64,000 nucleotides of DNA. Source: an uncultured bacterium. GTDB taxonomy: Bacteria; JAHJDO01. Positions 1,572 through 58,119 of this stretch are shown here, piece by piece. The notes beneath the pieces were generated by a model. The model was not told where the DNA came from. It worked only from the letters and a program-made list of their open reading frames with translations, and did no database searches. The stretch lies in assembly GCA_964437505.1 (NCBI GenBank), contig CAYTGU010000006.1, positions 5,400 to 69,399 on the forward strand. The letters are read 5' to 3'. How positions within the stretch are numbered: the first letter of the stretch is position 1; each line of letters opens with the position of its first letter. Position numbers and translations under genes: made by a program.

Positions 1572-1620
1572 AAATTCGAAGCACGAAGCACTAAATACGA
1601 AACAATATCAAATGCACAAA
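1572..1620 (+). repeat. Solo heptamer-period repeat arm
   Basis: AAATTCG AAGCACG AAGCACT AAATACG AAACAA TATCAAAT: four 7-mers plus AAACAA, the same layout as the arms around the gene at 20280. Confidence 0.55.
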
Positions 1621-1637
1621 GAAGAAGATGTTAAATT

Positions 1638-4205: not shown

Positions 4206-4243
4206 TATCTGAACACAGAATATTTATCTAAACAAGGTCTATT

Positions 4244-6165: not shown

Positions 6166-6190
6166 CATTGTGTGTTTCTTTCGGTACAAT
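6162..6190 (+). promoter_or_regulatory. sigma70 promoter for the pilus machinery operon
   Basis: TTGACA-17 bp-TACAAT overlapping the prmC stop; supports GTG 6220 as the downstream start. Confidence 0.75.
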
Positions 6191-6219
6191 TCGCACAACT
6201 GATTTTGGAGAAAGACAAA

Positions 6220-7932
6220 GTGGTAGAAGATAATAAAAAGTTTCTGGGAGAAATACTTCAAGACATAGGTTTGATCTCAGAAAAGCAGTTGGAAACTGCC
6301 TTAGCAGAGCAGCGACAAACAGGTGAAAGACTTGGGAATATACTGATAAAGCTTGGATATATAGATAATGAAGGACTTTGTAAGGCATTAGCTTCTCAGT
6401 TTGGGTTGAAGACGATAAATATATCTGAATATAATATTGCACAGGAAGTGATAGATAAAGTTCCTCAATCAGTTGCAAAAAAACATAAAATTATACCTTT
6501 GGAATTTGAAAATAATATTTTAACGATTGCTATGGCTAGTCCACTGAATCTTCTTGCGTTGGATAATCTAAGAATAGTGCTGAATTGCGAAGTTGAAGGA
6601 TTGTTAGCTACAGAAGAACAGATCGAAAGTTCCCTGGAAAGATATTATGGTGTCAGGGAAGAAACAATTGATAGCATGCTTCAAGAGTTGAGTGAACAGG
6701 ATATAGATTTTGTTGGTGGTGAAGTTGCAGAGGAAGAAGAAGAGATCTCGGATGAAGCACCAGTTATAAAACTGGTTAGTTTGCTAATACTGGAAGCACT
6801 TCGTGCCAGAGCAAGTGATATACATATTGAACCTCTAGAGGGGAGATTTAGGGTGCGCTACCGCGTAGATGGAGTATTACATGAAGTGCCTGCGCCGCCT
6901 AAAAGGCTGGAGAAATCAGTAATCTCCCGTATCAAGATTATGTCTGGTATGAACATTGCAGAAAAGAGACTTCCTCAGGATGGTAAAATAAGATTGTCCT
7001 TGTTAGGAAAAGATATTGACTTGCGTGTATCAGCTTTGCCTGCAATACATGGGGAAAGTGTTGTATTAAGAATCCTTGATAAGAGTAGTTTATTATTAGG
7101 CATGGCTGAACTGGGCTTCTTAGAAAAGGATATGAAAAAGTTTGAGTCGCTGATTGCATCACCTAATGGTATTATTCTTGTAACAGGTCCAACAGGTAGT
7201 GGTAAAACAACAACTCTTTATGCAGCTCTTAATAAGATAAATCAGCCGGACAGAAAATTGATAACAGTTGAGGAACCTGTTGAATACCAGTTAACAGGTA
7301 TCAATCAGGTTAATGTAAAAAGCGAGATTGGATTGACATTTGCTAGTGTTTTAAGATCTATGTTGAGACAGGCTCCTGATATTATAATGGTTGGAGAGAT
7401 TCGAGACGATGAAACAGCAGAGATTGCTATAAGATCTGCTTTAACAGGTCACCTTGTATTCTCCACGCTTCACACTAATGATGCTCCCAGCGCAGTAACA
7501 CGTCTTATTGATATGGGAATAAAGCCTTTCTTGGTGGCTTCGTCAATTCAGGCAGTTCTTGCACAGAGGTTGGTCAGAACAATCTGTCCAGAATGCAAAG
7601 AAGCATATACTCCAAGAAAAGATGAAATTTTACAAATAGAAAGAGCATTTAATAAAAAGGGTATGGGTAAAGTACAGTTCTATATAGGTAAAGGGTGTCC
7701 AAAGTGCTCTCAGACAGGTTATAAAGGGAGGATAGGTATTTTTGAATTACTCGTACTCAATAGCGAGATTCGCTCATTAATTCTTAAGAGAACATCAAGC
7801 GCAGAAATTAGAAAAAAGGCGTGTGAGCTTGGAATGAAGACCCTAAGGCAGGATGGTTTAGAAAAAGTTGTGATGGGAATGACTACACTTTCTGAGGTGG
7901 AACGAGTAACTCAAAAAGATGTAGAATTGTAA
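6220..7932 (+). CDS. PilB/GspE-family extension ATPase 1 with MshEN-like N-terminus
   Basis: LGEIL..GLI...QL..AL.EQ and RLGNILIKLG; GPTGSGKTTT; LRQAPDIIMVGEIRD; CPEC/CPKC. Start moved from track 6172 to GTG 6220 (GGAG RBS; promoter position). Confidence 0.92.
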   Translation: MVEDNKKFLGEILQDIGLISEKQLETALAEQRQTGERLGNILIKLGYIDNEGLCKALASQFGLKTINISEYNIAQEVIDKVPQSVAKKHKIIPLEFENNILTIAMASPLNLLALDNLRIVLNCEVEGLLATEEQIESSLERYYGVREETIDSMLQELSEQDIDFVGGEVAEEEEEISDEAPVIKLVSLLILEALRARASDIHIEPLEGRFRVRYRVDGVLHEVPAPPKRLEKSVISRIKIMSGMNIAEKRLPQDGKIRLSLLGKDIDLRVSALPAIHGESVVLRILDKSSLLLGMAELGFLEKDMKKFESLIASPNGIILVTGPTGSGKTTTLYAALNKINQPDRKLITVEEPVEYQLTGINQVNVKSEIGLTFASVLRSMLRQAPDIIMVGEIRDDETAEIAIRSALTGHLVFSTLHTNDAPSAVTRLIDMGIKPFLVASSIQAVLAQRLVRTICPECKEAYTPRKDEILQIERAFNKKGMGKVQFYIGKGCPKCSQTGYKGRIGIFELLVLNSEIRSLILKRTSSAEIRKKACELGMKTLRQDGLEKVVMGMTTLSEVERVTQKDVEL

Positions 7933-7945
7933 GGAGCAATATAAA

Positions 7946-9010
7946 ATGGAGATGAATGAACTGCTAAAAATCGTTGTAGACAGGAATGCTTCTGACATAC
8001 ACTTAGTAGTAGGGAAGCCTCCTGTTTTACGTATAGATGGAAGACTGGATGTTCTTGACTTTGAGGAGCTGAAAAACGAGGACACAGAGAAGTTAATGAA
8101 AAGTATTACCTCAGAACATCAGCAGCAAAAACTACAAGAGATGGGGGGAACAGATTTTGGTTTTTCTTTTGGGGATATAGCAAGATTCCGTGTAGCCATT
8201 TATAAAGAAAGAGGAAATACTTCAATTGCAATGAGACTCATTCCGATGAAACTTTTGACATTTGATGAGTTGGGATTATCTGAGCAAGTTAAACAGCTTA
8301 TGTATAGACCACGCGGACTGGTCCTTGTAACAGGACCAACCGGCTGTGGTAAGACAACAACACTTGCCACAATGATTGATTATATAGCGAGAAATAGAGA
8401 TACTCATATAATAACAATTGAAGATCCTATAGAGTATTACCATACTCATCATAATGGTGTTATGTCTCAGAGAGAGTTGGGTGTAGATGTTCCTTCGTTC
8501 TCTGAAGCTCTCACCAGAGCCCTAAGGCAGGATCCTGATGTTATAATGGTGGGAGAGATGAGGGATCTAGGTACAATGGAGGCTGCTATTTCAGCTGCGG
8601 AAACCGGGCATTTGGTATTAGCAACCTTGCATACAACAGGCGCTGCAGCCACAATTGACAGAATAGTTGACGCTTTTCCTACTGCGCAGCAGGAACAAAT
8701 AAGAACGCAATTATCTGAATCTCTTGTAGCAGTAATTTCTCAGCAATTAATTCCCAGAACCACAGGAGGAAGAATAGCATCTTATGAGATAATGGTAGCT
8801 ACTTCAGCTATAAAGAATCTAATAAGGGAGAAGAAGTCTTATCGAATAATCTCCTCTATTCAAACAGGGAAAAAGCTCGGCATGAAAACAATGGATGATG
8901 CTCTAACAGAGCTTTACAATAGCAAAACAATAAGCTACGAAGAGTATATTACACGTTGTTATAGTGTAGCAGATGCTGAAGTAAAGGCAGGAGAAAAGAA
9001 AAATGACTAG
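7946..9010 (+). CDS. pilT: Type IV pilus retraction ATPase PilT
   Basis: ASDIHL..G.PP..RIDG, GPTGCGKTTT, ALRQDPDVIMVGEMRD, AIKNLIRE. Confidence 0.93.
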   Translation: MEMNELLKIVVDRNASDIHLVVGKPPVLRIDGRLDVLDFEELKNEDTEKLMKSITSEHQQQKLQEMGGTDFGFSFGDIARFRVAIYKERGNTSIAMRLIPMKLLTFDELGLSEQVKQLMYRPRGLVLVTGPTGCGKTTTLATMIDYIARNRDTHIITIEDPIEYYHTHHNGVMSQRELGVDVPSFSEALTRALRQDPDVIMVGEMRDLGTMEAAISAAETGHLVLATLHTTGAAATIDRIVDAFPTAQQEQIRTQLSESLVAVISQQLIPRTTGGRIASYEIMVATSAIKNLIREKKSYRIISSIQTGKKLGMKTMDDALTELYNSKTISYEEYITRCYSVADAEVKAGEKKND

Positions 9011-10727
9011 CAAAAAGAAGCCTATTGGGCAGTTGTTGCTTGAGAAAGGACTAATAACACATGAGCAGTTAGAGCATGCTCTGAATGAGCAGCAAAAATC
9101 TAATGGCTTGCTTGGCAGAATTTTAGTAGATCTTGGTTTTGTGACAGAAGCAGACATCTTGTCTACATTAGGAGCACAAACTGGAATGCCTGCTGCAGAT
9201 TTATCTAAAATAAATATTCCCCCGGAAGTTTTGGAAAGGGTTTCAGCTCCAATTGCAAAAGTATATAAAATTATTCCTGTAAAAATAGAAGAGAATATTC
9301 TGTATATAGCTATGGCGGATCCTTTGAATATTAACGTCTTAGATGATTTGCGGTTCATGTTGGAATGTGAAGTAAGAGGCATGGTAAGCAATGAGAAAGA
9401 TATTGAGGAGGCTATTGCTAAATATTATGGAGAAAAAACAGAGACTGTTCAGGATGTCTTAAAGGATATGGAATCAGGAGCAATAGAAATCAAAGGAGGT
9501 ATTGATGAGACTGAGGAAGATATTCATGATGTAGCAACTCTTCAGGAGTTGGCGCATCAGGTTCCTGTAGTTAAATTGCTTAATTTAGTGCTTATTCAGG
9601 CAATAAAGGATAAGGCTAGTGATCTGCATTTTGAGCCATTTGAAGACCAATTTAAGATCAGATATCGTGTGGACGGGATGCTTTATGAGATGATCCCACC
9701 ACCTAGGCATTTGGCTTTAGCGGTAACTTCCAGAATTAAGGTTATGGCAGGAATGGATATTGCCGAAAGAAGATTGTCACAGGATGGAAGGATTGAGCTC
9801 AATATGGGTGGAAGAGAAGTAGACCTTCGTATATCAACTTTACCAACGCTTTACGGAGAAAGCGTTGTAATACGAATATTAGACAGAGGCTCTGTTATGC
9901 TCTCTCTGGACCAGGTAGGTTTTTTGGAAGAAGATCTAAAGCTATTAAGAGATTTAATAAAAAAACCTAATGGTATTATTCTTGTAACAGGCCCAACCGG
10001 ATGCGGCAAAACTACAACCCTTTATTCTGCTTTAAAGGAAATTAATTCTCCTGAGGACAAAATAATCACTACGGAAGACCCTGTTGAGTATAATTTAGCA
10101 GGTATTATACAAGTGCAAATAAGACCTCATATAGGTTTAACTTTTTCCAAGTGTCTCAGAAGTATATTAAGACAGGATCCTGATAAAATATTAGTAGGAG
10201 AGATCCGCGATCTGGAGACTGCGGAAATGTCTATTCAGGCTTCACTTACAGGACATTTAGTGCTGAGCACGTTACATACTAATGATGCAGCTGGTACAAT
10301 TGCCAGGCTTATTGATATGGATATTGAGCCTTTTCTTATAACCTCGACGCTAGAGGCTATTATTGCGCAAAGACTTGTTAGGAAAATATGTTCTAGTTGT
10401 AAAGAGGAGTATTCTCCAGATGAAGAAGAATTATCCTTGATTGGGCTCAAGCCGGAGGACGTGAAGGGCAAGAAATTTTATAGGGGCAAAGGATGTGAGG
10501 TATGCAACGGCATTGGATATAAGGGGCGAACAGGTATTTTGGAAATACTTGTTATTAACGACGAAATAAGAACTCTTATTGTTAATAAGGCAACTGCTGG
10601 TGATATTAGAAGCAAATCTCGCGAAAAAGGGATGTCAATGTTAAGAGAAGACGGACTGAAAAAAATATGGATGGGAATTACTACTATTGAGGAAGTAGCA
10701 AGAGAGACACAGGGAGTGGAGATATAG
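9003..10727 (+). CDS. PilB/GspE-family extension ATPase 2 with MshEN-like N-terminus
   Basis: IGQLLLEKGLI...QL..AL.EQ; GPTGCGKTTT; LRQDPDKILVGEIRD; CSSC/CEVC. Confidence 0.92.
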   Translation: MTSKKKPIGQLLLEKGLITHEQLEHALNEQQKSNGLLGRILVDLGFVTEADILSTLGAQTGMPAADLSKINIPPEVLERVSAPIAKVYKIIPVKIEENILYIAMADPLNINVLDDLRFMLECEVRGMVSNEKDIEEAIAKYYGEKTETVQDVLKDMESGAIEIKGGIDETEEDIHDVATLQELAHQVPVVKLLNLVLIQAIKDKASDLHFEPFEDQFKIRYRVDGMLYEMIPPPRHLALAVTSRIKVMAGMDIAERRLSQDGRIELNMGGREVDLRISTLPTLYGESVVIRILDRGSVMLSLDQVGFLEEDLKLLRDLIKKPNGIILVTGPTGCGKTTTLYSALKEINSPEDKIITTEDPVEYNLAGIIQVQIRPHIGLTFSKCLRSILRQDPDKILVGEIRDLETAEMSIQASLTGHLVLSTLHTNDAAGTIARLIDMDIEPFLITSTLEAIIAQRLVRKICSSCKEEYSPDEEELSLIGLKPEDVKGKKFYRGKGCEVCNGIGYKGRTGILEILVINDEIRTLIVNKATAGDIRSKSREKGMSMLREDGLKKIWMGITTIEEVARETQGVEI

Positions 10728-15500: not shown

Positions 15501-16067
15501 ATGAAGACGACAGACGACAGACCACAGACGACAGACCACGGTAAAAAACTATGGTCTAAAGTAGGTTTCACCGCTGTTGAGCTTATGATAGTGCTTGCAA
15601 TCATGGGTATTATGCTTGTTGCAGCAGTACCATCATTTGTCCAATTCACAAGAAATTCCAGGATTAAGAGCGGAGCGCAGATGGTTGTTTCCGCTCTTAG
15701 AACTGCGCGCAGTTATGCAATAACAAAAAGAAAAAACTGCATGGTCATTGTAGATACCACAATGAATGCAGTAAAGATCTATGAGAACGATACAGGAACA
15801 CTGAGTAACTGGAAAGTAATGCCAAAGACGATTGTAATTAGTCATGAAATTTCATCCGGATATCATCTTAATGTACCGTATCCTGACGATTCAGCGGCGG
15901 CAAGTGGAAGTTATACGTCAAAACCTACAGTCAAATTCAAACCAACAGGAGGAGCGACTATTGGTGGCACAATTCAGGTTAGTGATGACGATAAGACAAA
16001 TCCTGATACATCCTATATTACATGGACAAACATTACAGGTCGTGTGAGGACATCGCGTACGCCATGA
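15501..16067 (+). CDS. GspH/FimT-like minor pilin with repeat-encoded leader
   Basis: MKTTDDRPQTTDHGKKLWSKVG|FTAVELMIVLAI; L..ARSYAI..R; F.PTG, TGRV at the C-terminus. Confidence 0.85.
   Translation: MKTTDDRPQTTDHGKKLWSKVGFTAVELMIVLAIMGIMLVAAVPSFVQFTRNSRIKSGAQMVVSALRTARSYAITKRKNCMVIVDTTMNAVKIYENDTGTLSNWKVMPKTIVISHEISSGYHLNVPYPDDSAAASGSYTSKPTVKFKPTGGATIGGTIQVSDDDKTNPDTSYITWTNITGRVRTSRTP
15506..15557. repeat. Heptamer array plus one inverted unit inside the pilin leader
   Basis: GACGACA GACGACA GACCACA GACGACA GACCACG, then GTAAAAAAC TATGGTC T. Confidence 0.85.
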
Positions 16068-16083: not shown

Positions 16084-16539
16084 ATGTTTAGGATTTTGAG
16101 AATTAGAATTTTGAATTTGTTTCGGATTTGCTCTACTCGCGCTTTCAGCCTTCTTGAACTTGTTATTTCAATGGCTATTCTGTCTATCGCGCTTCTCGGA
16201 CTTATTCAAATGTTCCCTGTAGGTCTCAGGGCAAGCAAGCATGCAGGAGACTACACAATGATGACATTTCTTGGTCAGCAAAAAATGAGTGATATTGAGC
16301 AGAATAAATATGAAGATAATGAGTATATGAATGCCAATGATGTTAGTGATATTGATACGTCTTCGTCCTTGACTACTTCAGATCATTTTTTTGCTTCTCC
16401 AAATGAGAGTTTTTCATGGAGTTGCGTGGTTTCGACTCATAATGATATAGATAATTTGTATCACGCTACTTTAGCTATATACTGTAATGATAGAGGCGAT
16501 ACCAGAATTGAGGAATTTGTAACGAGTTATGTTAAGTGA
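16084..16539 (+). CDS. GspI/PilV-like minor pilin
   Basis: MFRILRIRILNLFRICSTRA|FSLLELVISMAILSIALLGL. Confidence 0.82.
   Translation: MFRILRIRILNLFRICSTRAFSLLELVISMAILSIALLGLIQMFPVGLRASKHAGDYTMMTFLGQQKMSDIEQNKYEDNEYMNANDVSDIDTSSSLTTSDHFFASPNESFSWSCVVSTHNDIDNLYHATLAIYCNDRGDTRIEEFVTSYVK
16087..16129 (-). repeat. Inverted copy of the 1572-type arm inside the pilin leader
   Basis: Reverse complement AAATCCGAAACAAATTCAAA matches 1593-1612 AAATACGAAACAATATCAAA at 17/20. Confidence 0.6.
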
Positions 16540-17260
16540 AATAAAAACAGACGACAGACGACAGACCACAGTAAAAAACCATGGTCCATGGTCTATTGTC
16601 CATGGTCTAAAAGGTAGTTCTGCTTTCACATTGATCGAAATGATGATCACAACAGCAGTTTTGGCTTTATTGATAACAGGCATTTATTCTGTTTTTAAAG
16701 GTGGTACCGATTCATGGACAAAGGGTAATGTAAGAATGGAGCGGTATCAGAACGCAAGAGCAATTCTGGGGATGATGTCAAGAGAGATCTCCTGCGCAAT
16801 GGTTAATGAGGCGAGAAAGATATATATGCTGGGAATAAATGACGATGGCACTCGGATAAAAACAGGCAGTAGCAGGGATGAACTGTTTTTTATTGCTCCT
16901 GTACACGAAACCAGTAGTTTGGGAACTGACGAGTCTGATATGTGTGAAATAGGCTACTGGACAAGAGGAGATACCGAGATTATGCGCCATTATACAGCTT
17001 CATCTGTGGATTTTGTTTATAAAAGTGGAGATAATAGCGATTCGCTTGGCGTAAAAGCAACAGATCTTCAATTTTATTATTACTATGACAATAATGATGC
17101 GGATTCTCAGGTAAACTGGGGTTCTAATGATTCGGATGCAGATACCTATTTATATACTTTGCCAAAAAAGATAACAATAGTTCTCAAAACAAGAGATGAA
17201 GAAGCGAGAGAAGATACTCAGACCTTTGAGACCACTGTATTTATGCCGGGAGCGGAATGA
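16529..17260 (+). CDS. GspJ/PilW-like minor pilin with repeat-encoded leader
   Basis: MLSEIKTDDRRQTTVKNHGPWSIVHGLKGSSA|FTLIEMMIT; AR.IL.MMSREIS.A. Confidence 0.85.
   Translation: MLSEIKTDDRRQTTVKNHGPWSIVHGLKGSSAFTLIEMMITTAVLALLITGIYSVFKGGTDSWTKGNVRMERYQNARAILGMMSREISCAMVNEARKIYMLGINDDGTRIKTGSSRDELFFIAPVHETSSLGTDESDMCEIGYWTRGDTEIMRHYTASSVDFVYKSGDNSDSLGVKATDLQFYYYYDNNDADSQVNWGSNDSDADTYLYTLPKKITIVLKTRDEEAREDTQTFETTVFMPGAE
16550..16608. repeat. Heptamer inverted-repeat hairpin inside the pilin leader
   Basis: GACGACA GACGACA GACCACA GTAAAAAAC CATGGTC CATGGTC TATTGTC CATGGTC T. Confidence 0.85.
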
Positions 17261-20211
17261 AAATCAAAAATCAATCTGGTATTGCTCTAATAATAGTTGT
17301 CTCCATTATGGCTGTTCTTGCCTCTATTGCTGCTGCTTTTTCATACAGCATGATAATGGACCAGCGCGCAGCAGCCAATTATATGAACGGGATAAAAGCG
17401 GACTATGTTGCAAAAGCAGGCATTCAGCACGCAATTGGCGTTCTAAAGAAGGATGGTGACCCGTCCAATAACGAATCAGGTGATTACTGTATGTATGAAG
17501 GATATGACTGGTATGGTGATGACTGGGGATATGATAGCACTTTGTTTGGAGGAGATACTGGTGGCGATGATTCAAATATAGATAACGATAGCTCTACTCT
17601 GACTCAGACTTCTGGATGTGGCAGTGGTTATGATTCTCGATGGGTATATCTGACAGATTCACAGGGGAAACTGATTGGAAGATACGCTGTTCTGGTTATT
17701 GATGAATCTGGCAAGGTAAATATAAATAGCGCAGGCGCAGGGCTCACATATGGGAACGAAGGCTGGACAACTGCTGAGATAAATCTTGGGCAGGTTTGCA
17801 GCGATATACTCTCCGATCAATCAAAGGCAGCAGATATCTTAAATATAATATACGGAACAGACGGTTGTTCCGGAATTGCTGATCATGATGACAATGCTGA
17901 CAGTGTCATCCTTAATAATGACGGAATAGATAATGATGGAGATGGAACAGCTGACGAAGGAGATGAGGGAGTAGATGATTCCGCAGAGTTTTATATTGCC
18001 AGGCCATACACTGCTTCCAGCGGTCTAAACGCTGATACGCCTTTTGTAACGATTGGGGAAGTCGTGTCTCTTGCCGGATTGAACAATTCAGATTATCAGT
18101 CATTATCTCCATATATCACAGCTTTTTCCTCTGACAAAAACCTCACGGATTCAGGGTTGGCACGGCTGAATATCAACGCTGTAAGCTCTGCAATGGAGTT
18201 GTATTCAGCTCTAAGGGATGCCTGCGAATATTGGGAAGGGACAGCAGCCTACTCAACAGCAGAGCTTGCTCAGATGGCAGTGAACATAATTGACTACAGA
18301 GACCGCGATAACGGCTCAACGCGAATTGATGTTGAAGATGATGCCGGCACTGTATTTACCCGATACGGCGTTGAAGGCATAAGAATAAATGAGGTAATGG
18401 TAAGGCCTGTGTTTAGGGAGGAAGCACCGGATCCACCCGACAGTAATGAGGGTACTGGCCTTGGATGGGAAGCACCTAATTGGACAAGTTCAGCTGTTGA
18501 TGATAGTGGTATATGGTCTTGGTCTAGTATTCCTGACGGCACATATAAAGTAAAAATTTATGGTTCAGGAAATGTGGATTACTGGATATATCCCAAGGTT
18601 AACGATTCGTGGTCAGGTGTGCATACAAAGGATTTACCTGATATCTCAACAGCAGATACAGTAATAATATCTGGTGGCGCAGGTGTATTTATGCTCAATG
18701 TTCGGGCTAATAATGATGATGATTACTGGTACCGTATTGAACTCTCCCAATCCCCTGACTGCGAGTATGTTGAGCTTGTAAATATTTCCGAAAATGCAAT
18801 TACAATGGACGGATGGCATCTGGAATTTCCAAATGGCCAGGTCGGCACTATTCCAAGCGGGACAAGTATCGCAAGAGGAGATACAGTGGTTCTTGCTATA
18901 GATAAAGACGATACATACGACAATGATGGCATCTGGCAGAATAATGCGGCAAATGGCATCTCTCTTCAAAAGTCAGTTAGCGATGGTCTTTTGGATTCTA
19001 CAACAGGCAAGTTTGATATAAACCAAGTCTATCAGCTCTCTTTTACGAATACGATTGAGGATGATATCCTCTGTGATACGGTTTTAGTAGATAGTCCTCT
19101 GCGTCTTTATGACGGACCCATCGCGCCAACCTCAGGCAATCCCGCGGGCCATATTGTTGATCAGGTTCTATGGGATAGTTCAATAATACAGGATAATGAT
19201 TTTCTCTCTATGGAAAGGAATGACCCGACTTATATGGGAGTAGATGAATTAAATGATTCAGGCATCTTTGACAGCTGGCTTATATGTGCAGATTCGGACA
19301 GAGGAACTCCAACATACGAAAACAACAATAATTCTCCAACTGTAAATATTAAGGTAAAAAACTCTCCATTTGCAAACATAGGGGAGATAGCGGATGTATC
19401 ATTCAGCGGAGAGGAATGGGTGAACATAGGAAATAGTTCACATGGTGAAAATATAATAAGGAATATTGCAGACAGGATCACTGTCTCAGGAAGACGGCTT
19501 GATGCGGAGTTTGGGGTCCATACAGGTTCAAACTGGGACTCTTCTCCAGAGGTAATACCAACATCAGAGGTAGCGCGTTCTACAAATCCCGGAGATCTTT
19601 ACTGGTTCAAGGCAACCGCTTCAGCAAGTTCAACAGAGGACACATGGACATGGTACACAACAATAGACAGATTTGAGGCAGATACATACATCATGTACGT
19701 TTACGGAAGAGAAGGCGGGACAATGAGAGTGAGAGTAGGCAATGATACTGCAATTATTACTCCAAGCTCAGATTATGGTGCTAGGTTTGGGCAGGTTGTT
19801 ATATCAGATACTACTTTGAATGTCGCTCTTCTGTCTCCAGATGTTAGTTCAGACTCAACATACTTTGATTATATTCTCCTTACACCAGCGTCAAAGACTT
19901 ATGGAAGATTGAATATAAATACAGCTGGCTATACTGTTCTTCAGTCACTTAAGGGAATAGGGACTGATACAGCAGAGAAGATTACGGCTGATACTCCATT
20001 TCGTAGTATTGGGGAGCTTGTTACTGCTCCAACAGCATCTATAGGAACTACGAATTTCCAACCAATTTCAAATCTCATTACAACAAAATCCAATGTATTC
20101 AAGATAATCTGCACAGGCCAGTCAATTCTGGATAAGAATGGTGACGGGACTTTTGATACAGACGACGAGGTGCTCGGGGAGAGGAAGATCACAGTTATTT
20201 ATGAGAGATAA
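17257..20211 (+). CDS. Very large GspK/PilX-like minor pilin (984 aa)
   Basis: MKIKNQSG|IALIIVVSIMAVL (no Glu5, typical of the K/X class); DESGKVNINSA, RLNINA, lamin-tail-like RINEVM...EYVELVN, HhH-like GRLNINTA...LQSLKGIG. Confidence 0.8.
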   Translation: MKIKNQSGIALIIVVSIMAVLASIAAAFSYSMIMDQRAAANYMNGIKADYVAKAGIQHAIGVLKKDGDPSNNESGDYCMYEGYDWYGDDWGYDSTLFGGDTGGDDSNIDNDSSTLTQTSGCGSGYDSRWVYLTDSQGKLIGRYAVLVIDESGKVNINSAGAGLTYGNEGWTTAEINLGQVCSDILSDQSKAADILNIIYGTDGCSGIADHDDNADSVILNNDGIDNDGDGTADEGDEGVDDSAEFYIARPYTASSGLNADTPFVTIGEVVSLAGLNNSDYQSLSPYITAFSSDKNLTDSGLARLNINAVSSAMELYSALRDACEYWEGTAAYSTAELAQMAVNIIDYRDRDNGSTRIDVEDDAGTVFTRYGVEGIRINEVMVRPVFREEAPDPPDSNEGTGLGWEAPNWTSSAVDDSGIWSWSSIPDGTYKVKIYGSGNVDYWIYPKVNDSWSGVHTKDLPDISTADTVIISGGAGVFMLNVRANNDDDYWYRIELSQSPDCEYVELVNISENAITMDGWHLEFPNGQVGTIPSGTSIARGDTVVLAIDKDDTYDNDGIWQNNAANGISLQKSVSDGLLDSTTGKFDINQVYQLSFTNTIEDDILCDTVLVDSPLRLYDGPIAPTSGNPAGHIVDQVLWDSSIIQDNDFLSMERNDPTYMGVDELNDSGIFDSWLICADSDRGTPTYENNNNSPTVNIKVKNSPFANIGEIADVSFSGEEWVNIGNSSHGENIIRNIADRITVSGRRLDAEFGVHTGSNWDSSPEVIPTSEVARSTNPGDLYWFKATASASSTEDTWTWYTTIDRFEADTYIMYVYGREGGTMRVRVGNDTAIITPSSDYGARFGQVVISDTTLNVALLSPDVSSDSTYFDYILLTPASKTYGRLNINTAGYTVLQSLKGIGTDTAEKITADTPFRSIGELVTAPTASIGTTNFQPISNLITTKSNVFKIICTGQSILDKNGDGTFDTDDEVLGERKITVIYER

Positions 20212-20220
20212 TGGGAAAAC

Positions 20221-20686
20221 AATTTCTAATTTCCAATTTTAAATTATTAATCAAGTCTTTAATGCTTTAATTTTTAATTATGAATTATGATCTAGAAGAA
20301 AGAACAGCGAAATTTGGGGAAAAGATTATTATGCTTTCGAAAAAAATTCCTCAAAGTACAATAACTTCGCCTATTACTTCTCAATTGATAAGATCAGGCA
20401 CAAGTCCTGGAGCAAACTACTGCGAAGCAACAGGTGCAAGTTCAAAGAAAGACTTTAAAAACAAGATACATATTTGTAAAAAAGAAATTCAAGAGACAAA
20501 GTACTGGTTAAGAATGCTGACGATAGCTTATCCTGAGGTTAAAGGTGAAGCAAGAAAATTATGGAAAGAAGCGCAGGAGTTAACATTGATATTTGCAAAG
20601 ATTATCTCAACTCTGGATAAGAGAAAATAAATAGAAATTATAAAATTAGTAATTGATTGAAAATTAGAAATTTAAAATTAATAATT
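20221..20686. other. Four-helix-bundle cassette bounded by 34-bp imperfect inverted heptamer arms
   Basis: Left 20221-20254 AATTTCT AATTTCC AATTTTA AATTATT AATCAA; reverse complement of right 20653-20686 AATTATT AATTTTA AATTTCT AATTTTC AATCAA (26/34 identical, though very AT-rich). Confidence 0.65.
20280..20630 (+). CDS. Four helix bundle protein (23S rRNA IVP / bAvd-like, TIGR02436 type)
   Basis: YDLEERT.KF, SQLIRSGTSPGANYCEA..A.SKKDF.NKI.ICKKE..ET.YWL, EA.EL..IF. Confidence 0.9.
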   Translation: MNYDLEERTAKFGEKIIMLSKKIPQSTITSPITSQLIRSGTSPGANYCEATGASSKKDFKNKIHICKKEIQETKYWLRMLTIAYPEVKGEARKLWKEAQELTLIFAKIISTLDKRK

Positions 20687-20718
20687 CATGTGTAGGGTTA
20701 CGGGTTTTGGAGTTTAGT

Positions 20719-44152: not shown

Positions 44153-44590
44153 ATGCCAGATGTTTTTATAATCATGGGAAAGACAAAGACAAAAAAGTCA
44201 GCAACTATTAGAGCGTTAACTGGGGTATTCCATGGAAAAGATTGGAAAGTAGCAACTCAGAACGAAACTATTGATATTTTTGTGCAGGTACGCGCCTTAC
44301 AAGAGGCAAAAATTAGTCCTAAGAATTTCATAAGACAGCGAAATGGCTCTCTAAATATTTTAGTGTGCTTATGGATTTCTAAAGGAAATGGACAACCTGA
44401 TGGAGACACTTATATCAAAGCTTTTCTTAAGGCAAGATGGAATATTAAAGAGATTGTGGTTCTTGGAACTGAAAAATTACCATATGATTTACCGCAAGAC
44501 ACGCCTAAGCCGAAATTCATCCACGATTCGCAAAATCGGCCAGCTAATTGGATAGCTTCTCAAGTTAGAGGATGGTGGAGATGGTTATGA
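44153..44590 (+). CDS. Hypothetical protein with degenerate P-loop-like N-terminus
   Basis: 145 aa, GGGAG RBS; VFIIMGKTKTKKSATIRALTG. Confidence 0.65.
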   Translation: MPDVFIIMGKTKTKKSATIRALTGVFHGKDWKVATQNETIDIFVQVRALQEAKISPKNFIRQRNGSLNILVCLWISKGNGQPDGDTYIKAFLKARWNIKEIVVLGTEKLPYDLPQDTPKPKFIHDSQNRPANWIASQVRGWWRWL

Positions 44591-45210
44591 GAAAAAACAT
44601 AATTTTATTATCTTTTATTCTAGTGTCGGTGGTTGTGTATGGCATAAGTGCCGATGAAATAATTACTGTTAGTATTTTTTTTGGTATATGTACCGTTTGT
44701 GCAATTGTAGCTATTCTATTCGGTATTAGACGTAAGCAAAAGACAAAAGAGGAGAAGGGTGAATTTATAGAAAATAAAGAAATAGCAAAAGAGCGACCAT
44801 CAGAACGCATAGCTAACGCTTATGTTAAGAAGAACGGGATAGAGGTTAAAATAACATCATCTTTGGGTCTTTCAACTTTCATCTTCATCATCATTGTACT
44901 TATCCTTGTGCTTTCAATAAGGTTATACTTAGTGGATCCATTGGAGAGTGTGGACACAGACAAGCTTCTGAACCTTGTCTGTTTGATATTAATTATACTA
45001 TGCCCATTAGCTTGGTTACTTGAGAAATTGATTGGTCCTTGTACAATAGCTAGAGTGACTGGAGCTTGTCCATATTGTGGTACCATGCTTACTATTACTT
45101 GTGGTAGGAGTAGAATTAAATTTCCCTATTCCTTCACTTGTGAGGTCTGTAGGGAATTGATTATTCTCAAAGAAGAGAAATTCTTTAAGAAAGATGATAT
45201 AGTAATCTAA
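44572..45210 (+). CDS. Hypothetical membrane protein with C-terminal zinc ribbon
   Basis: About four TM segments; CPYCG...CEVC. Start may be 44581 or 44587. Confidence 0.65.
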   Translation: MVEMVMRKNIILLSFILVSVVVYGISADEIITVSIFFGICTVCAIVAILFGIRRKQKTKEEKGEFIENKEIAKERPSERIANAYVKKNGIEVKITSSLGLSTFIFIIIVLILVLSIRLYLVDPLESVDTDKLLNLVCLILIILCPLAWLLEKLIGPCTIARVTGACPYCGTMLTITCGRSRIKFPYSFTCEVCRELIILKEEKFFKKDDIVI

Positions 45211-45231
45211 AGAAGTATTAACAAAAAGCAG

Positions 45232-45519
45232 GTGGGGAATATGGGAGAAGGAAAACAATTTGATTGGATTCTGGAAAGGGGAAAGTGTAAAGTTGCAACT
45301 AACGCATGTGTCCAAAATAAGAAACGAGTCTGTACTCTTTATATTGTTGATGAAATAAATGAAAGGACGCTTGATGAACACTTCATGATCCAGAATTTAT
45401 CACTCTCAAAATTTACTAAATACATAAAAGGAACTTTCTCAAAAGCAGAAACCCATGAGATAAATAAACTCTTTTATAAAATCGTTGCGTCACTAGATGA
45501 AATGGGAAAAGATGACTAA
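45232..45519 (+). CDS. Hypothetical protein
   Basis: 95-aa ORF co-oriented with its neighbours; no motif recognised. Confidence 0.45.
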   Translation: MGNMGEGKQFDWILERGKCKVATNACVQNKKRVCTLYIVDEINERTLDEHFMIQNLSLSKFTKYIKGTFSKAETHEINKLFYKIVASLDEMGKDD

Positions 45520-45602
45520 ATGCAAGAATGTTAAGAATGCATCAAATCTTTATCAGACAAATTAGAAAGAATAATACGAAAATGATATTGCATACCAAAC
45601 AT

Positions 45603-45670
45603 CTGGATTCCCCGATTAAATCGGAGAATGACAAGCAAGATTGCCACGGGACTTTGTCTCTCGCAATGAC
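45603..45670. repeat. Two adjacent palindromic repeats ending in AATGAC (RPE/dRS3-like)
   Basis: ATTCCCCGAT-TAA-ATCGGAGAAT-GAC (45607-45632) and ATTGC...GCAAT-GAC (45640-45670). Confidence 0.65.
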
Positions 45671-45696
45671 CGGTGATGAATAAAAAAGAGAAATAA

Positions 45697-46518
45697 ATGA
45701 CAAGAGAAATACAGAAAATAGAAGTTCAAGGAGCAAAAATTCGTCTCATATCTAAAAATGGGAAGGATTATATTTCTCTAACTGATATGATCAAGTCATT
45801 CGGAGATGAAACTATAATTTACAACTGGATGCGTAACGGAAATACTATCGAATTTCTTGGCATTTGGGAACAAATTAATAATCCAGATTTTAAACCTGTC
45901 GAATTCGATAGGTTTAAAAGTGAATCCGGGCTCAATCGATTTGCTATGTCTCCCAAAAAATGGACAGAAGCGACAAAGGCTATAGGAATTTTTTCAAAAT
46001 CTGGTCGTTATGGCGGCGGGACTTATGCTCATAAAGACATTGCTTTTGAATTCGGTTCTTGGCTAAGTCCAGAATTTAAACTTTATCTGATTACAGAATT
46101 CCAACGATTAAAAGAAGAAGAAAATAAAACAAAAAAATTAGAATGGAATCTTCAACGTACATTGGCTAAAATTAATTATAGAATTCATACCGATGCAATA
46201 AAAGAGAAATTGATTCCAGCTAAATTGTCAAAAGATCAAATTAATTTTATTTACGCTAACGAGGCAGATGTTTTAAATATGGCTCTATTTGGTAAAACAG
46301 CCAAAGAGTGGAGAGGAAAAAATCCTAATAAAACTGGTAATATTCGAGACTATGCAACCATAGAACAACTTGTTATATTAACGAATTTAGAGAGCATTAA
46401 TGCGATGCTTATTCAACAAAATTTTGACCAAAAAGGGAGATTGCAAAAATTAAATGAGTTAGCAATATCACAAATGAAGTCTTTATTAAGCAACCAAAAT
46501 ATTAGAAAATTAAAATAA
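45697..46518 (+). CDS. KilA-N domain DNA-binding protein
   Basis: DYISLTDM, NWMRN..TIEFLG.WE...NP.F, SGRYGGGTYAHKDIAFEF.SWLSPEFKLYLI.EFQRLK. Confidence 0.9.
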   Translation: MTREIQKIEVQGAKIRLISKNGKDYISLTDMIKSFGDETIIYNWMRNGNTIEFLGIWEQINNPDFKPVEFDRFKSESGLNRFAMSPKKWTEATKAIGIFSKSGRYGGGTYAHKDIAFEFGSWLSPEFKLYLITEFQRLKEEENKTKKLEWNLQRTLAKINYRIHTDAIKEKLIPAKLSKDQINFIYANEADVLNMALFGKTAKEWRGKNPNKTGNIRDYATIEQLVILTNLESINAMLIQQNFDQKGRLQKLNELAISQMKSLLSNQNIRKLK

Positions 46519-50667: not shown

Positions 50668-50679
50668 CATTTTTAAATC

Positions 50680-50888: not shown

Positions 50889-50909
50889 AAAAACAGGAGG
50901 AATAAAACT

Positions 50910-51905: not shown

Positions 51906-51907
51906 AG

Positions 51908-52786: not shown

Positions 52787-53428
52787 ATGAGAAATTATTT
52801 TAAAAGCAGTATTTGTTTTTCAATTGTTCTACTATCTTTATTAGTCACTTCTGCTGCTGTTTGTAAGCCTGCGGAAAATCAAAAACATCCAATAACGGTT
52901 CAGTCAAAAGCTGCATCAGATATTCGAGACATAGAAGGCCCTGTTAATTTACGCCGAAAATGGCCGATATACACAATAATCATATCAGTCGTAGTAGTTT
53001 TGCTTATTATCGGATTATTAGTGTATTTTTTGAGAAAGAAGAAGAAAAAGAAGTCCGATATTTCTCCACGGAGACCGGCTCACGAATTGGCCTATGAGAT
53101 GCTGGAAAATTTAAAAAAGAAGAATTTAATTAAACAGCATAAGATCAAACAGTACTATATCGAATTATCGCTTATTGCAAGACACTATCTTGAAAACAGG
53201 TTTGATATAAAAGCGCCTGAAATGACTACGGAAGAATTTTTGCTTAAGATTAAGGAGTCTAAAGAATTGTTCAGCAGACATAGAGAATCATTAAAGGCGT
53301 TTTTATCGCATTGCGATATGGTTAAGTTTGCTAAATATGGACCGAATGAATCGGAAATCGATTTGAGCTTTCAGTCTGCAAAAAAGCTTGTGGATCAGAC
53401 TAAGATAGAAGTAAAGCAGGGGAAATAA
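52787..53428 (+). CDS. Bat-operon membrane protein (DUF4381-like)
   Basis: Signal peptide, IRDIEGP, one TM, EMTTEE, D.VKFAK. Confidence 0.7.
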   Translation: MRNYFKSSICFSIVLLSLLVTSAAVCKPAENQKHPITVQSKAASDIRDIEGPVNLRRKWPIYTIIISVVVVLLIIGLLVYFLRKKKKKKSDISPRRPAHELAYEMLENLKKKNLIKQHKIKQYYIELSLIARHYLENRFDIKAPEMTTEEFLLKIKESKELFSRHRESLKAFLSHCDMVKFAKYGPNESEIDLSFQSAKKLVDQTKIEVKQGK

Positions 53429-55430: not shown

Positions 55431-55432
55431 AA

Positions 55433-56290
55433 ATGAAAAACACAAAACAGGTTAGTAAATTTGTTATTTACAATTTATTACTTGTTGCTGTTTTCTTACC
55501 ACTGTTCACTTGCTCTGCCTTTGCGGAGAGCAGTGCAGGTGTAGTGAAAAAGGCTAATAAGCTGTATAAAAACAAAAAATACGACGAGGCGTTAAAGGAA
55601 TACGACAGGGCATTAACAAAATCTCCGGATTCTGCAGTTGTGAATTTCGATATAGGCGCAGCTCAGTATAAAAAAGGTGATTTTGAGAAGGCGCTTGGCT
55701 CCTTTACAAAAGCATTAATATCAGAAGACGGGAAACTTGAATCTAAGACAAATTACAATATTGGAAACAGTAAATATAAACAGGGGGTACTTAAGGAAAA
55801 TACCGATCTGTCTTCTGCTATAAGTTTATTAAAAGACTCGCTTGCCTATTATAAGAGAGTGATAGAACTGGATGAAAAGAATAAGGATGCTAAATTCAAT
55901 CATAGATTTGTGGAAAAGAAACTAAAAGAATTGTTGGATAAACAGAAAAAACAGCAAAAACAAGACGATAAAGAAGATAAAGAGAAAAACCAGAAGGATA
56001 AGCAAGAACAGCAAAAGCAGAATAAGCAGCAATCCGAAAATAAAAAGCAAAAGAGCAAAGAAGAAAAAGAGTCTGGTTCTAATAATGAGAAAAGAAAGCA
56101 AGAACAAACAGGAAAGGAACAGAAACAGGGCAGTGAATCTCAAAAACAAAAAGCTGAAAAGTCTAAAGAAATGTCTGAGAAGGAAGCAAAGATGCTTTTA
56201 GAGGGGTACAGGCATGAAGAGGAATTAAAAGATAAACTCAAAAAAATAAAACAACAGGGTCATTATCCTGAAGTGTTAAAGGACTGGTGA
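55433..56290 (+). CDS. batC: TPR protein BatC with Q/K/E-rich linker
   Basis: TPRs (A...Y..AL, YN.GN..Y), low-complexity region, C-terminal KDW. Confidence 0.82.
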   Translation: MKNTKQVSKFVIYNLLLVAVFLPLFTCSAFAESSAGVVKKANKLYKNKKYDEALKEYDRALTKSPDSAVVNFDIGAAQYKKGDFEKALGSFTKALISEDGKLESKTNYNIGNSKYKQGVLKENTDLSSAISLLKDSLAYYKRVIELDEKNKDAKFNHRFVEKKLKELLDKQKKQQKQDDKEDKEKNQKDKQEQQKQNKQQSENKKQKSKEEKESGSNNEKRKQEQTGKEQKQGSESQKQKAEKSKEMSEKEAKMLLEGYRHEEELKDKLKKIKQQGHYPEVLKDW

Positions 56291-58119
56291 TGGAACAGAG
56301 AACAGAGAACAGATCACAGATCACAAGTCTTAAATTAAGGGCTAATTTGCTTTTTGTTTTTTTGTCTGTCGTCTATTGTCTATCGTCTGTTATCTGCTTT
56401 GCAAAGGATATAAGATTTGAAGCTTCTGTTGACAGAAACAAGGTTTCTTTGGGCAGCGCTATCACTCTCAATCTTACTTTTTACGGCACTCGGGGTATGT
56501 CTGCGCCAAAACTTCCTAAAATAGATGGATTTCAATCCCGATATAAAGGACCTTCAACAAGAATGTCGATGGTCAACGGAAAGGTTTCCAGTTCGATAAC
56601 ACATATATATACGCTTATTCCTATGCGTGTCGGAAAATTCAGAATTGGTCCTTTATCGTTCAAATATAAGAAAAAGTCTTATACTTCGAAAGAGATAACT
56701 ATTGAGGTTGTAGAGAGCGATGTTAATGAGCCTGAGGGGACGCAGTCCCTTTCCAGAAAAGCATCTTTGGGCGATAATGTTTTTTTAAAGATGTATGTTC
56801 CGAAGCAGGATGTATATTTAAACCAGATTGTTCCCTTAACCATAAAACTGTATGTCACGAGACTTACACTAAGAGATATAGAATATCCGGTATTTTCGCA
56901 TAACGGCTTCTCAGTAGACAAGTTTGCCAAGCCGGCGCAATACAGGGAAATTTTAAACGGCAAGGAATATGAGGTAATAGAATTCAAAACAAATATTTTC
57001 GGGATAAGGACAGCTAAACTGGCGTTAGGACCTGCGCAGCTTAAATGCAATCTACTTGTTAATCGGAGAAGACAGAGAAACTATTCTATGTTTGATAGCT
57101 TTTTTGGAGAGAGAGAGATTTATCCTCTGAGTTTAAAGTCTAAGGAGATCCAAATAACGGTCAATGATCTTCCTGAAGAGGGGAAGCCTGAAGGTTTCAG
57201 CGGAGCTGTTGGAGACTTTACGTTTGATTTAAAAGCTGAGCCAAAAGAAGTTAATGTCGGGGATCCGATCACACTGAAGATGGTTATAAAAGGCAGAGGC
57301 AATTTCGCGACAGTAACCTGCCCAAAACTTGACTCTAACCAGCACTTCAAGATTTATGATCCTGAAGTAAAACAAGAAGATGGAGTAAAAACATTTGAGC
57401 AGATATTAATGCCTGATACAGATACTGTAAAAGAAATCCCCGAAATTACATTCAGCTGTTTTGACACAGAAAGAAAGGCTTACCGCACAATATCAAAAGG
57501 GCCTGTTCCAATAAAAGTAACAAAATCTAAGAAGGAAGATGGGTTAAGAATAGTAGAGTCTTCTCAAACTGCTCTGAGGTATGTTAAAAGGGAAACATTA
57601 GGCAGAGATATTGTATATATTAAGGATGAACCTGGTAAACTGATAAGAAAACAGACGTATCTTTACAAAAACAGGACGTTTTTGGCCGTTCAGATACTGC
57701 CGTTTATTATATTTATATTGCTGTCTGTTATTCACAAACGAACTGAAAAATTGAGAACAGATCTGCGATATGCTCGGAATTTGCGCGCATACAAAAAGGC
57801 GAAACGCGGAATTAAGAAAGCAAAGCATCTTCTTAGCAGTGAAAAGACACAGGAATTTTATGATTGCATATTAAAAACATTAAAGGAATATCTGGGGAAT
57901 AAACTGCATATTACCCATGGTGGAATAACCTCGGATATTGTTGACGGAGTTTTAAGACATAAAGCAATAAATAAAGAGGTATTAAAAACTTTGGATGATA
58001 TTTTTAAGGAGTGCGATATTACAAGATACGCTCTTTTGGAACGCAGCAGTAAAGAAACGAATAGCCTCTTTTGGAAAGTCAAAAAAGTTATTAAGCTTCT
58101 GGAGAAAGAAAGACTATGA
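56287..58119 (+). CDS. batD: BatD family protein
   Basis: ASVDR..V.LG, S.VNG, P.F.GAVG.F, .G.GN, F..YDP; position in the Bat operon. Confidence 0.85.
   Translation: MMEQRTENRSQITSLKLRANLLFVFLSVVYCLSSVICFAKDIRFEASVDRNKVSLGSAITLNLTFYGTRGMSAPKLPKIDGFQSRYKGPSTRMSMVNGKVSSSITHIYTLIPMRVGKFRIGPLSFKYKKKSYTSKEITIEVVESDVNEPEGTQSLSRKASLGDNVFLKMYVPKQDVYLNQIVPLTIKLYVTRLTLRDIEYPVFSHNGFSVDKFAKPAQYREILNGKEYEVIEFKTNIFGIRTAKLALGPAQLKCNLLVNRRRQRNYSMFDSFFGEREIYPLSLKSKEIQITVNDLPEEGKPEGFSGAVGDFTFDLKAEPKEVNVGDPITLKMVIKGRGNFATVTCPKLDSNQHFKIYDPEVKQEDGVKTFEQILMPDTDTVKEIPEITFSCFDTERKAYRTISKGPVPIKVTKSKKEDGLRIVESSQTALRYVKRETLGRDIVYIKDEPGKLIRKQTYLYKNRTFLAVQILPFIIFILLSVIHKRTEKLRTDLRYARNLRAYKKAKRGIKKAKHLLSSEKTQEFYDCILKTLKEYLGNKLHITHGGITSDIVDGVLRHKAINKEVLKTLDDIFKECDITRYALLERSSKETNSLFWKVKKVIKLLEKERL
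56293..56396. repeat. Heptamer inverted-repeat pair inside the BatD signal peptide
   Basis: GAACAGA x3, TCACAGA, TCACAAG ... TCTGTCG TCTATTG TCTATCG TCTGTTA TCTG; the right arm's reverse complement contains GACGACAGA as in the pilin leaders. Confidence 0.75.

Follow-up and report, generated by a model that had tools for sequence, protein, structure and literature searches.

The 64,000-nt stretch of DNA analysed here, hereafter called the window, belongs to contig CAYTGU010000006.1 of an uncultured bacterium (assembly GCA_964437505.1; GTDB lineage JAHJDO01). It contains a small gene cassette with ends made of tandem 7-nt units (heptamers), located between the gene of a 984-aa type II secretion system (T2SS)-K-like protein and prfB, and further heptamer arrays near the starts of other genes. 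The complete element comprises 466 nt (20221-20686, + strand) and occupies most of the 507-nt gap (20212-20718) between both genes. Its left arm (20221..20255), which begins 10 nt past the stop codon of the T2SS-K-like gene (20209-20211), consists of the units AATTTCT AATTTCC AATTTTA AATTATT AATCAAG. It is followed by a conserved, A/T-rich sub-terminal leader (20256..20279, + strand) that extends to the start codon of a small gene and contains no Shine-Dalgarno sequence. This gene (20280..20630, + strand) encodes a basic, Avd-like four-helix-bundle (4HB) protein of 116 aa. The right arm (20634..20686, + strand), with the core ATTGAAA ATTAGAA ATTTAAA ATTAATA ATT (20656-20686), is the inverted complement of the left arm, with 94% complementarity over 17 nt or 79% over 24 nt.

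The 4HB protein belongs by profile to PF05635 (E 1.2e-14; 54.8 bits, cut-off 33.8) and TIGR02436 (78.8 bits, cut-off 24), as claimed in an earlier note on this DNA, and matches PDB 2RLD (E 7e-13). The conserved motif of the family, RxxxSxxxNxxE (PMC3936711), is present as R-SGT-S-PGA-N-YC-E. A single-sequence AlphaFold2 model (predicted local distance difference test score 79) gave Foldseek matches to 2RLD (template modelling (TM) score 0.75-0.80), 2GSC (0.77) and Avd (4DWL, 0.71-0.75); according to this model, the predicted fold is a four-helix bundle like that of 2RLD, 2GSC and Avd, and the Avd likeness stated in the earlier note is thus reproduced by the model. Both solved relatives, 2RLD and 2GSC, comprise five chains each, and PMC3936711, citing Lin et al. 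(2006), describes a pentamer. PADLOC and PHROGs returned no match to the protein, while a single-sequence phmmer search yielded 7,582 clusters at 50% identity.

The comparison with other genomes indicates that the 4HB gene and its arms are inserted as one block. In the syntenic relative L091, which was found by a metagenome scan with the 984-aa protein (68% aa identity), the spacer before prfB comprises only 6 nt (TAG-GCATTG-ATG) compared to 507 nt in the window. Since this orthologous empty site lacks any array, the arms came together with the gene. Conversely, a genome scan revealed an element with 86% nucleotide identity over 467 nt in an unrelated metagenome-assembled genome (MAG), L011. 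The similarity begins and stops precisely at the outer arm ends (20221 and 20686) and includes a nearly identical sub-terminal leader, while blastn and tblastx found no similarity between the 2.5-kb flanks on either side. The presence/absence polymorphism among relatives that the earlier note had predicted is therefore found. Furthermore, cassettes exceed their orthologous flanking genes in nucleotide identity (97% versus 81-87% in L078/L090; 92% versus 74-83% in L048/L072), which hints at either recent exchange or strong constraint on the whole cassette. In L010, a more distant strain, an identical 4HB protein is flanked by arms whose units stand in a different order.

Between the element and the ATG of prfB (20719) lies a second, unrelated heptamer run (20695..20715, + strand; GGGTTAC GGGTTTT GGAGTTT), which may be the remnant of an older array. 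At the same position, L011 contains GGGTTTA GAATTTA GGATTTA and L010 GGATTTT GGATTTA. The GGAG of this run (20709-20712) is the sole Shine-Dalgarno-like sequence ahead of prfB and could serve as its ribosome-binding site. In addition, the right arm holds a sigma-70-like TTGAAA-17-AATAAT (20657-20685) facing prfB; it was the one good match, and the number of such sites in the region did not exceed that of shuffles. In relative L094, the 984-aa gene is followed not by the 4HB cassette but by a nucleotidyltransferase-like ORF and another small ORF (335-1064), which by eye may represent an MNT/HEPN-like toxin-antitoxin pair. This site thus resembles a hot spot at which small selfish cassettes insert. 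Another kind of repeat, a (GACA)n tetranucleotide run, stands in the first codons of a 1018-aa T2SS-K-like homologue in the more distant relative L092 (2108-2135).

Inverted heptamer arms accompany 4HB genes in general. Our set of 84 homologues (59-83% aa identity) covers Patescibacteria, Omnitrophota, Gammaproteobacteria, Bdellovibrionales, Ignavibacteria and one Bathyarchaeia MAG. In 93% of them, the flanks are inverted-complementary above the 99th percentile of a same-locus control, and the signal is specific for period 7 (16.2/21 matches versus 8.9 in controls), with periods 5 and 9 near the control and periods 6 and 8 slightly raised. The suggestion that other copies of the gene carry inverted arms was therefore correct. 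Among the 65 elements with both arms, the median length is 472 nt with arms of ~52-55 nt. Their upstream gene is co-directional in 59 of 64 cases and ends at a median of 3 nt ahead of the arm, and their downstream gene is co-directional in 49 of 62 cases and starts at a median of 6 nt beyond it. Moreover, both arms of an element co-vary: they match each other better than arms of different loci do (17.7 versus 13.3, p < 5e-4). The unit itself differs between distant clades and cultured strains, e.g., GGTCGGA in Nostoc punctiforme, AATCCCC/AATCGTA in Planktothrix, which resembles classical STRR (short tandemly repeated repetitive) sequences, and GGATGAA in Chlorohelix. Distant paralogues add TTGGGTG and AAAAATC, both from L040, and CACTAGG. 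The unit type tracks the gene clade and not the host; L040 holds three unit types side by side. Arms of 8-nt units were seen in L062 at 1-74 and 471-540 and in L082 at ~800-911 and 1326-1400 (AACGAGTT; GGATTCTT-like).

Many of these cassettes reside within defence operons (drmD-MmeI, helicase-methylase, cas2-cas1), and Zhang et al. list a 4HB gene at cmr3-cmr2 (PMC3936711). Published repeats point in the same direction. GGGAATC array #15 of Rehm et al. (supplement, PMC4692102) lies between bccP and Xcc0516 and overlaps the start of Xcc0516, which is a crystallised member of the 4HB family. In Coxiella burnetii, the intervening sequence (IVS) of the 23S rRNA contains three to four GACAGAT units before the S23p ORF, inside the stem cut by RNase III (PMC4990558). 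Neither of these two publications makes the link to 4HB cassettes. In the open-access full-text literature, we found no paper that links heptamer repeats to TIGR02436/PF05635 genes.

Loci with filled copies also hold paired arrays of the same unit only 50-70 nt apart. In L088, two such arms-only copies occupy neighbouring gene junctions with a filled copy between them, and both align to the left arm, both sub-terminal segments (including the equivalent of 20256-20279) and the right arm of the filled copy. L021 contains a half-deleted intermediate in which the first ~30 residues of the 4HB protein remain encoded. Judged by these alignments, the arms-only copies are deletion derivatives of filled cassettes. 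Thus filled and empty forms, as postulated in the earlier note, do coexist.

Within the window, a sliding autocorrelation scan (at least 12/14 matches) detected six period-7 arrays, whereas first-order Markov nulls gave 0.4 +/- 0.7. Periods of 4-6, 8 and 10-12 nt yielded no array and period 9 yielded two versus 0.7 expected. Stricter settings left three to four period-7 arrays versus 0.0 expected, and Tandem Repeats Finder recovered the same sites. All sites lie at most 65 nt from a start codon, a zone that covers 12.9% of the window (p ~5e-6 for six sites), and all arrays start 3-20 nt past the preceding stop codon, in line with the ~20 bp of the earlier note. That note had listed arrays at six junctions: those at 15506, 16087, 16550, 20221/20653 and 56293 stand, whereas the one at 1572 is at chance level. 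This doubtful solo arm (1577..1604, + strand; CGAAGCA CGAAGCA CTAAATA CGAAACA) in the spacer between rpmE and a GH116 glycosidase gene comprises two perfect and two degenerate units, lacks a partner arm and does not fold (z-score +1.1). Perfect two-copy heptamers were seen four times in the 64 kb, while ~7 are expected as estimated from base composition. A CRISPR array was ruled out as an explanation, as the units are 7 nt long and arranged head-to-tail and are not 23-50 nt repeats with unique spacers.

Two of the remaining sites are arms-only hairpins of GACGACA-type units. Module A (15504..15557, + strand) consists of five AGACGAC/AGACCAC units, the loop GGTAAAAAACT and one ATGGTCT unit, and module C (16547..16607, + strand) of two ACAGACG and one ACAGACC, a loop, and CATGGTC CATGGTC TATTGTC CATGGTC. 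Both share the 26-nt core ACAGACCAC[R]GTAAAA[R]AC[Y]ATGGTC, which occurs twice in the window versus 0 expected. Their RNA folds are better than those of shuffles (z-scores -2.0 for A and -3.5 for C), and both sites are confirmed. For the third proposed hairpin, upstream in the batD gene (56293..56396, + strand), the arrays themselves are real, but the fold is no better than that of shuffles (z-score -1.3). This module comprises three GAACAGA, TCACAGA and TCACA (56293-56325), a 36-nt spacer, and a second arm (56362-56396, + strand) of TTGTCTG TCGTCTA TTGTCTA TCGTCTG TTATCTG. At junction B, finally, there is a solo T-rich arm (16087..16130, + strand; AGGATTT TGAGAAT TAGAATT TTGAATT TGTTTCG) of the same unit type as the arms of the 4HB element. 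It is weak by itself and was confirmed because L091 has a strong array of this unit type in opposite orientation at the same junction, while L093 has none.

The sites differ between relatives in further ways. At junction B, L093 has the plain canonical leader MKNIG (cleaved before F) and L091 has GAATTCAAAATTCAAAATCCAAAATTAAAAATT. Given the opposite orientations in L091 and the window, the simplest explanation is an ancestral hairpin of which the lineages retained different arms. At junction C, no array is present in L093, a short module in L091 and a longer one in the window; L093 thus lacks arrays in two orthologous prepilin leaders. Compared to L091, module C of the window differs by +28 and -7 nt, i.e., by net 21 nt or three units. 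At junction A, L091 has a run of TATTAAG-type heptamers and a 7-codon leader, while the window module there is almost identical to the junction-C module of L091.

The earlier note had placed all arrays at operon junctions. All of them are indeed close to a stop and a start codon, but those at 15504, 16087, 16547 and 56293 lie within reading frames and are translated. Module A encodes the leader MKTTDDRPQTTDHGKKLWSKVG (cleaved before F) of a GspH-like pseudopilin (15501-16067), the arm at 16087 the leader MFRILRIRILNLFRICSTRA (cleaved before F) of a PilV/GspI-like pseudopilin (16084-16539), and module C lies in the 31-aa leader MLSEIKTDDRRQTTVKNHGPWSIVHGLKGSSA (cleaved before F) of a GspJ-like pseudopilin (16529-17260). 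Since the prepilin profiles begin at residues 19-32 in the three pseudopilins and no alternative start codon exists between array A and its cleavage site between G and F, the arrays are translated as long leaders. That the net change of 21 nt in module C keeps the frame also argues for translation. In BatD (56290-58119), the arms are translated as MEQRTENRSQIT...LSVVYCLSSVICFA and make up the polar n-region and the hydrophobic h-region of the signal peptide, whereas the closest BatD orthologues (78-85% identical) possess unrelated signal peptides. Many other, more distant BatD orthologues of Omnitrophota (P0002-P0070) have array-like N-termini, e.g., QKSKIKNQ...FWFVFLIFEFWILNL, in which a K/N/Q/S-rich part precedes an F/L/I/W-rich part. 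The pattern in the predicted proteins suggests that inverted A-rich and T-rich arms were repeatedly co-opted as BatD signal peptides.

Among the fetched loci, a heptamer array ends within 60 nt upstream of 5 of 18 prepilin cleavage motifs, while ~2.5% would be expected. Heptamer modules before or inside prepilin leader codons were also observed in bacteria of the candidate phyla radiation (L015 at 2251-2362 and ~824; L062 at ~560). Three contigs with the pseudopilin operon (L116, L117, L118) stop at or just ahead of arrays B and C, and thus the arrays fragment assemblies. Both '23S rRNA IVP' and 'GspH' appear in published lists of CRISPR-linked genes (PMC10910872, PMC3936711), which might reflect arrays that were mistaken for CRISPRs.

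The GACGACA- and GAACAGA-type hairpins had been taken as derivatives of the 4HB element, and this part of the earlier proposal did not find direct support. A profile scan of all fetched loci, including 16 IMG/VR array loci, revealed no 4HB gene with GACGACA-type arms. A peptide search for (TDDRRQT)n returned only tiny spurious ORFs, the 150 best family representatives lack a TDDR-type N-terminal extension, and the 23-nt hairpin core had no exact match in viral contigs. These hairpins are assigned to the family because of their common architecture and the GACAGAT example of the Coxiella IVS (PMC4990558), so that their link to a 4HB gene is only an indirect one. In another organism, the fliN-flhA junction is occupied by an extended array of ACAGACG/ACAGATG/ACAGAAA units plus a short inverted arm (L121, 1480-1680), and this array was called as a 70-aa 'protein' on seven contigs.

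We consider it probable, if far from certain, that the window holds one complete copy and several miniature copies of a selfish foldback element of the IVS/STRR type. The anatomy of the element, its insertion as a block, its presence/absence among relatives, its spread across phyla, the relation of filled to empty copies and the read-through into proteins we regard as established. The complete copy would be a promoter-less cassette of a left array of about five units, a leader, the 116-aa 4HB gene and an inverted right array. Because it is inserted in sense orientation between the stop codon of one gene and the start codon of the next, the host operon would transcribe it, and such read-through would supply the expression of the 4HB gene. 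Gene-less copies of ~60-110 nt, consisting of the arms and sub-terminal remains, would persist at other gene starts. Where they fall in or near a dispensable N-terminal segment that is cleaved off, such as a prepilin leader or a signal peptide, they would be read through, with the A- or purine-rich arm becoming the polar n-region and the complementary arm the hydrophobic stretch. As the unit measures 7 nt, translated copies would survive only if their net change in length keeps the frame.

Three further steps would complete the mechanism, to which we attach decreasing confidence. Most confidently, we propose that the arms act as protein-binding terminal repeats with one 7-nt unit bound per subunit of a 4HB oligomer; this idea derives from the pentameric solved relatives and from arms of 5-8 units. 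With less confidence, we suggest that the 4HB protein, as an Avd-like nucleic-acid-binding cofactor, could recruit a host enzyme that copies or moves the cassette, the candidates being a polymerase, a reverse transcriptase or the recombination machinery. Least confidently, RNase III might cut the transcript stem where the arms are sufficiently G+C-rich, as in 23S rRNA.

Several observations weigh against this reading of the locus or narrow it. Mismatches between paired arms do not favour G·U-compatible changes (111 versus 124 in 80 arm pairs, p = 0.43), most of them being transversions, and the fold of 20205-20725 is no better than that of shuffles (z-score +0.7), with both arms unpaired in the minimum free energy structure. 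Because of the missing G·U preference and the ordinary fold, an RNA-stem function is unsupported for the A/T-rich window copy, and the earlier proposal that the element acts through a DNA or RNA hairpin is not borne out. From their sequences, the arms rather look like DNA-level terminal repeats than like a selected RNA stem. Movement is deduced from distribution and not from mechanism, as the element lacks a gene for a catalytic protein and the comparison of the empty site of L091 with the filled site of the window reveals no target-site duplication. The placement at junctions could reflect survival instead of targeting. Furthermore, two or three distant clades have period 8 instead of 7, and MAG binning errors or contamination could inflate the phylogenetic breadth, e.g., for the Bathyarchaeia hit. 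For the GACGACA/GAACAGA hairpins, neither the window nor four other contexts inspected contain an adjacent 4HB gene with matching arms. All population contigs checked carry the same arrays and thus give no sign of present activity, although sampling was small (three independent contigs for the pseudopilin arrays and nine for the 4HB arrays). Overall, the earlier interpretation is largely right in its outline of a filled or empty element at polymorphic junctions, and unproven as to mechanism and the unity of unit types. None of the refuting outcomes that the earlier note had named was observed. Another candidate function, in which the left arm would stop translation in all three frames while the right arm stays open, was rejected: no more than 23% of the left arms block every frame, and the right arms tend, if at all, to be blocked more often.

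A more far-reaching version of the foldback-element interpretation is conceivable, which we hold only tentatively and consider doubtful as a whole. TIGR02436 genes with inverted 7-nt arrays might form a very widespread, unrecognised class of mobile elements without a known transposase. The family counts at least 7,500 clusters of proteins (50% identity) from bacteria and possibly archaea. An Avd-like oligomer would read the heptamers one per subunit and recruit a host polymerase or reverse transcriptase. The STRRs, the GGGAATC repeats of Xanthomonas, the TAACTGA repeats of Beggiatoa and the stems of IVSs located in rRNA or RNase P RNA would then be non-autonomous offspring, occasionally domesticated as leader or signal peptides.

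One might instead regard the arrays as regulatory hairpins of the host, i.e., as cis-acting RNA elements (stabilisers, RNase III sites or translational couplers), with the 4HB protein as a host RNA-binding regulator and nothing mobile involved. The location of the arrays exactly at cistron boundaries and in sense orientation would suit such a role. STRR hairpins at hupS-hupL were proposed to stabilise transcripts or to couple translation (PMC2670836), RNase III cleaves the corresponding Coxiella stem (PMC4990558), and the regions around the Xanthomonas repeats are less rearranged than controls (PMC4692102). However, the same cassette stands in the unrelated context of L011, elements surpass orthologous flanks in conservation, and close relatives have an empty site or array-free leaders. 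The patchy distribution across phyla at 60-83% aa identity, the absence of a G·U signature and the three unit types of L040, which follow the gene clade, likewise speak for a mobile origin over host hairpins, and we judge the latter unlikely. A rather unlikely explanation, to our minds slightly more so, is that two independent phenomena meet: polymerase slippage produces heptamer arrays everywhere, their period of 7 being favoured by the footprint of the polymerase, and 4HB genes recombine into existing hairpins as landing pads. The excess of heptamers in bacteria was indeed ascribed to slippage (PMC4692102, discussion), GACGACA-type arrays are widespread without a nearby 4HB gene, and the units were re-ordered between L010 and the window around an identical protein. 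Yet the empty site of L091 is free of arrays, the similarity to L011 stops at the outer arm ends, arms-only copies keep sub-terminal non-array sequence of filled copies, and arms match better within an element than across elements, all of which disagrees with arrays that predate the gene.

The location of several arrays in leader codons of surface or secreted proteins also brings contingency loci to mind, in which slippage by one unit would switch the pseudopilins or BatD on and off, while the 4HB flanks would need an explanation of their own. The unit length of 7 cannot be divided by three, unit numbers vary between relatives, and metagenome contigs tend to break at arrays. However, imperfect arrays of just 3-5 units are poor substrates for slippage; population contigs of different samples all carry them unchanged, and relatives differ by a net 21 nt with the frame kept. 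Like arrays also occur in non-coding junctions and around 4HB genes in hundreds of genomes, and Rehm et al. found no bias towards surface genes (PMC4692102). Phase variation was therefore rejected, as population contigs, in a small sampling, showed no differences in unit number, and contingency loci appear very improbable to us.

The selfish cassette favoured here resembles several known systems without being identical to any. Closest are the 23S rRNA IVSs with an S23p/PF05635 ORF of Leptospira and Coxiella burnetii (PMC4990558), in which a member of the same protein family is encoded between terminal inverted repeats and, in Coxiella, tandem GACAGAT units stand between stem and start codon. 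These too encode no mobility enzyme, are transcribed in host RNA and are regarded as selfish and horizontally transferred. In contrast, the window element lies between a protein gene and prfB in a polycistronic mRNA and not in an rRNA helix, its arms consist entirely of A/T-rich 7-nt units without thermodynamic or G·U support for a stem, and its gene-less derivatives are translated. STRR heptamers of cyanobacteria, GGGAATC of Xanthomonas (PMC4692102) and TAACTGA of Beggiatoaceae, cyanobacteria and Bacteroidota (PMC4679880) share tandem 7-nt units, often in convergent hairpin pairs, as well as their location in short spacers of co-directional genes near start codons and their patchy spread across phyla. 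Here, unlike in those descriptions, the repeats are arms of a gene cassette and its deletion derivatives, and some copies are coding.

MITEs (miniature transposable elements with inverted repeats), foldback elements and REPINs with their RAYT transposase likewise comprise short inverted-repeat copies that share their ends with gene-bearing copies. They too are intergenic, multi-copy and present or absent at orthologous sites, and foldback elements also have inverted ends of short tandem units. The window element differs from these systems, as it has no transposase of a known family and no target-site duplication, and its only ORF is a helical bundle of 116 aa. Avd of diversity-generating retroelements (DGRs; 4DWL, 8UB7) has a homologous fold (Foldseek TM score ~0.7), is equally small and basic, and forms pentamers; in the DGR ribonucleoprotein it binds RNA and reverse transcriptase (PMC10053308; PMC3936711). 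The window protein, unlike DGR Avd, falls into a non-DGR branch of TIGR02436 and has no reverse transcriptase, template/variable repeat pair or target gene nearby; the heptamer arms are the only repeats found. The phase-variable CTCTT repeats of Neisseria opa genes lie in leader-peptide codons. They resemble the arrays in that tandem units that are not a multiple of three stand in signal-peptide codons of surface proteins, whereas the window arrays are imperfect, come with an inverted partner arm and are stable within the population.

Two aspects appear to be new: that rRNA IVS elements and STRR-type hairpins are two faces of one TIGR02436-centred cassette family, and that miniature copies are read through as leader peptides. 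If true, this would offer one testable explanation for the role of the rRNA IVS ORF, an open question since 1993, for cyanobacterial STRRs and other bacterial heptamer repeats, a puzzle since about 1990, and for the thousands of small 4HB proteins scattered in operons including CRISPR-Cas, DISARM and restriction-modification systems. It would also point to a mode of DNA movement that dispenses with a recognisable transposase and centres on a protein related to Avd, the DGR cofactor. The arrays show a route by which an inverted repeat is co-opted as signal peptide. On the practical side, they break metagenome assemblies and create spurious small ORFs.

The surroundings correspond to a chromosomal housekeeping region with a G+C content of ~38% and nearly all genes on the + strand. 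The named nearest relatives of its BatD are MAGs of Candidatus Omnitrophota, and contigs from several samples (ENA, JGI and Logan) carry identical copies of window proteins. When 61 window reading frames were compared with Pfam, neither a reverse transcriptase (no RVT domain) nor a transposase or integrase turned up, as stated in the earlier note, and an Rfam scan identified only three tRNAs and no rRNA. The genes near the arrays are rpmE and the GH116 glycosidase gene, prfA and prmC, and genes for three T2SS-E ATPases, a T2SS-F protein, a sigma-54 two-component pair and five pseudopilins (two GspG-like, one GspH-like, one PilV/GspI-like and one GspJ-like). The 984-aa T2SS-K-like gene, the 4HB gene and prfB follow, and a MoxR-BatA-BatD operon lies further downstream. 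The three T2SS-E/PilB-PilT-type ATPase genes are consecutive and precede T2SS-F, a sigma-54 response regulator and a histidine kinase (6172-10727); together with the pseudopilins, they constitute a large type IV pilus/T2SS-like locus. The prfB gene (20719-21808) contains a programmed +1 frameshift site, TAT CTT TGA C, with the in-frame TGA at 20785-20787. Farther downstream, three ORFs without Pfam match followed by a KilA-N domain protein (44153-46518) may be a small phage or mobile remnant; a tandem repeat of 16-nt period (45686-45723) overlaps the start of the KilA-N gene there, and its G+C of 0.344 is the minimum of the window.

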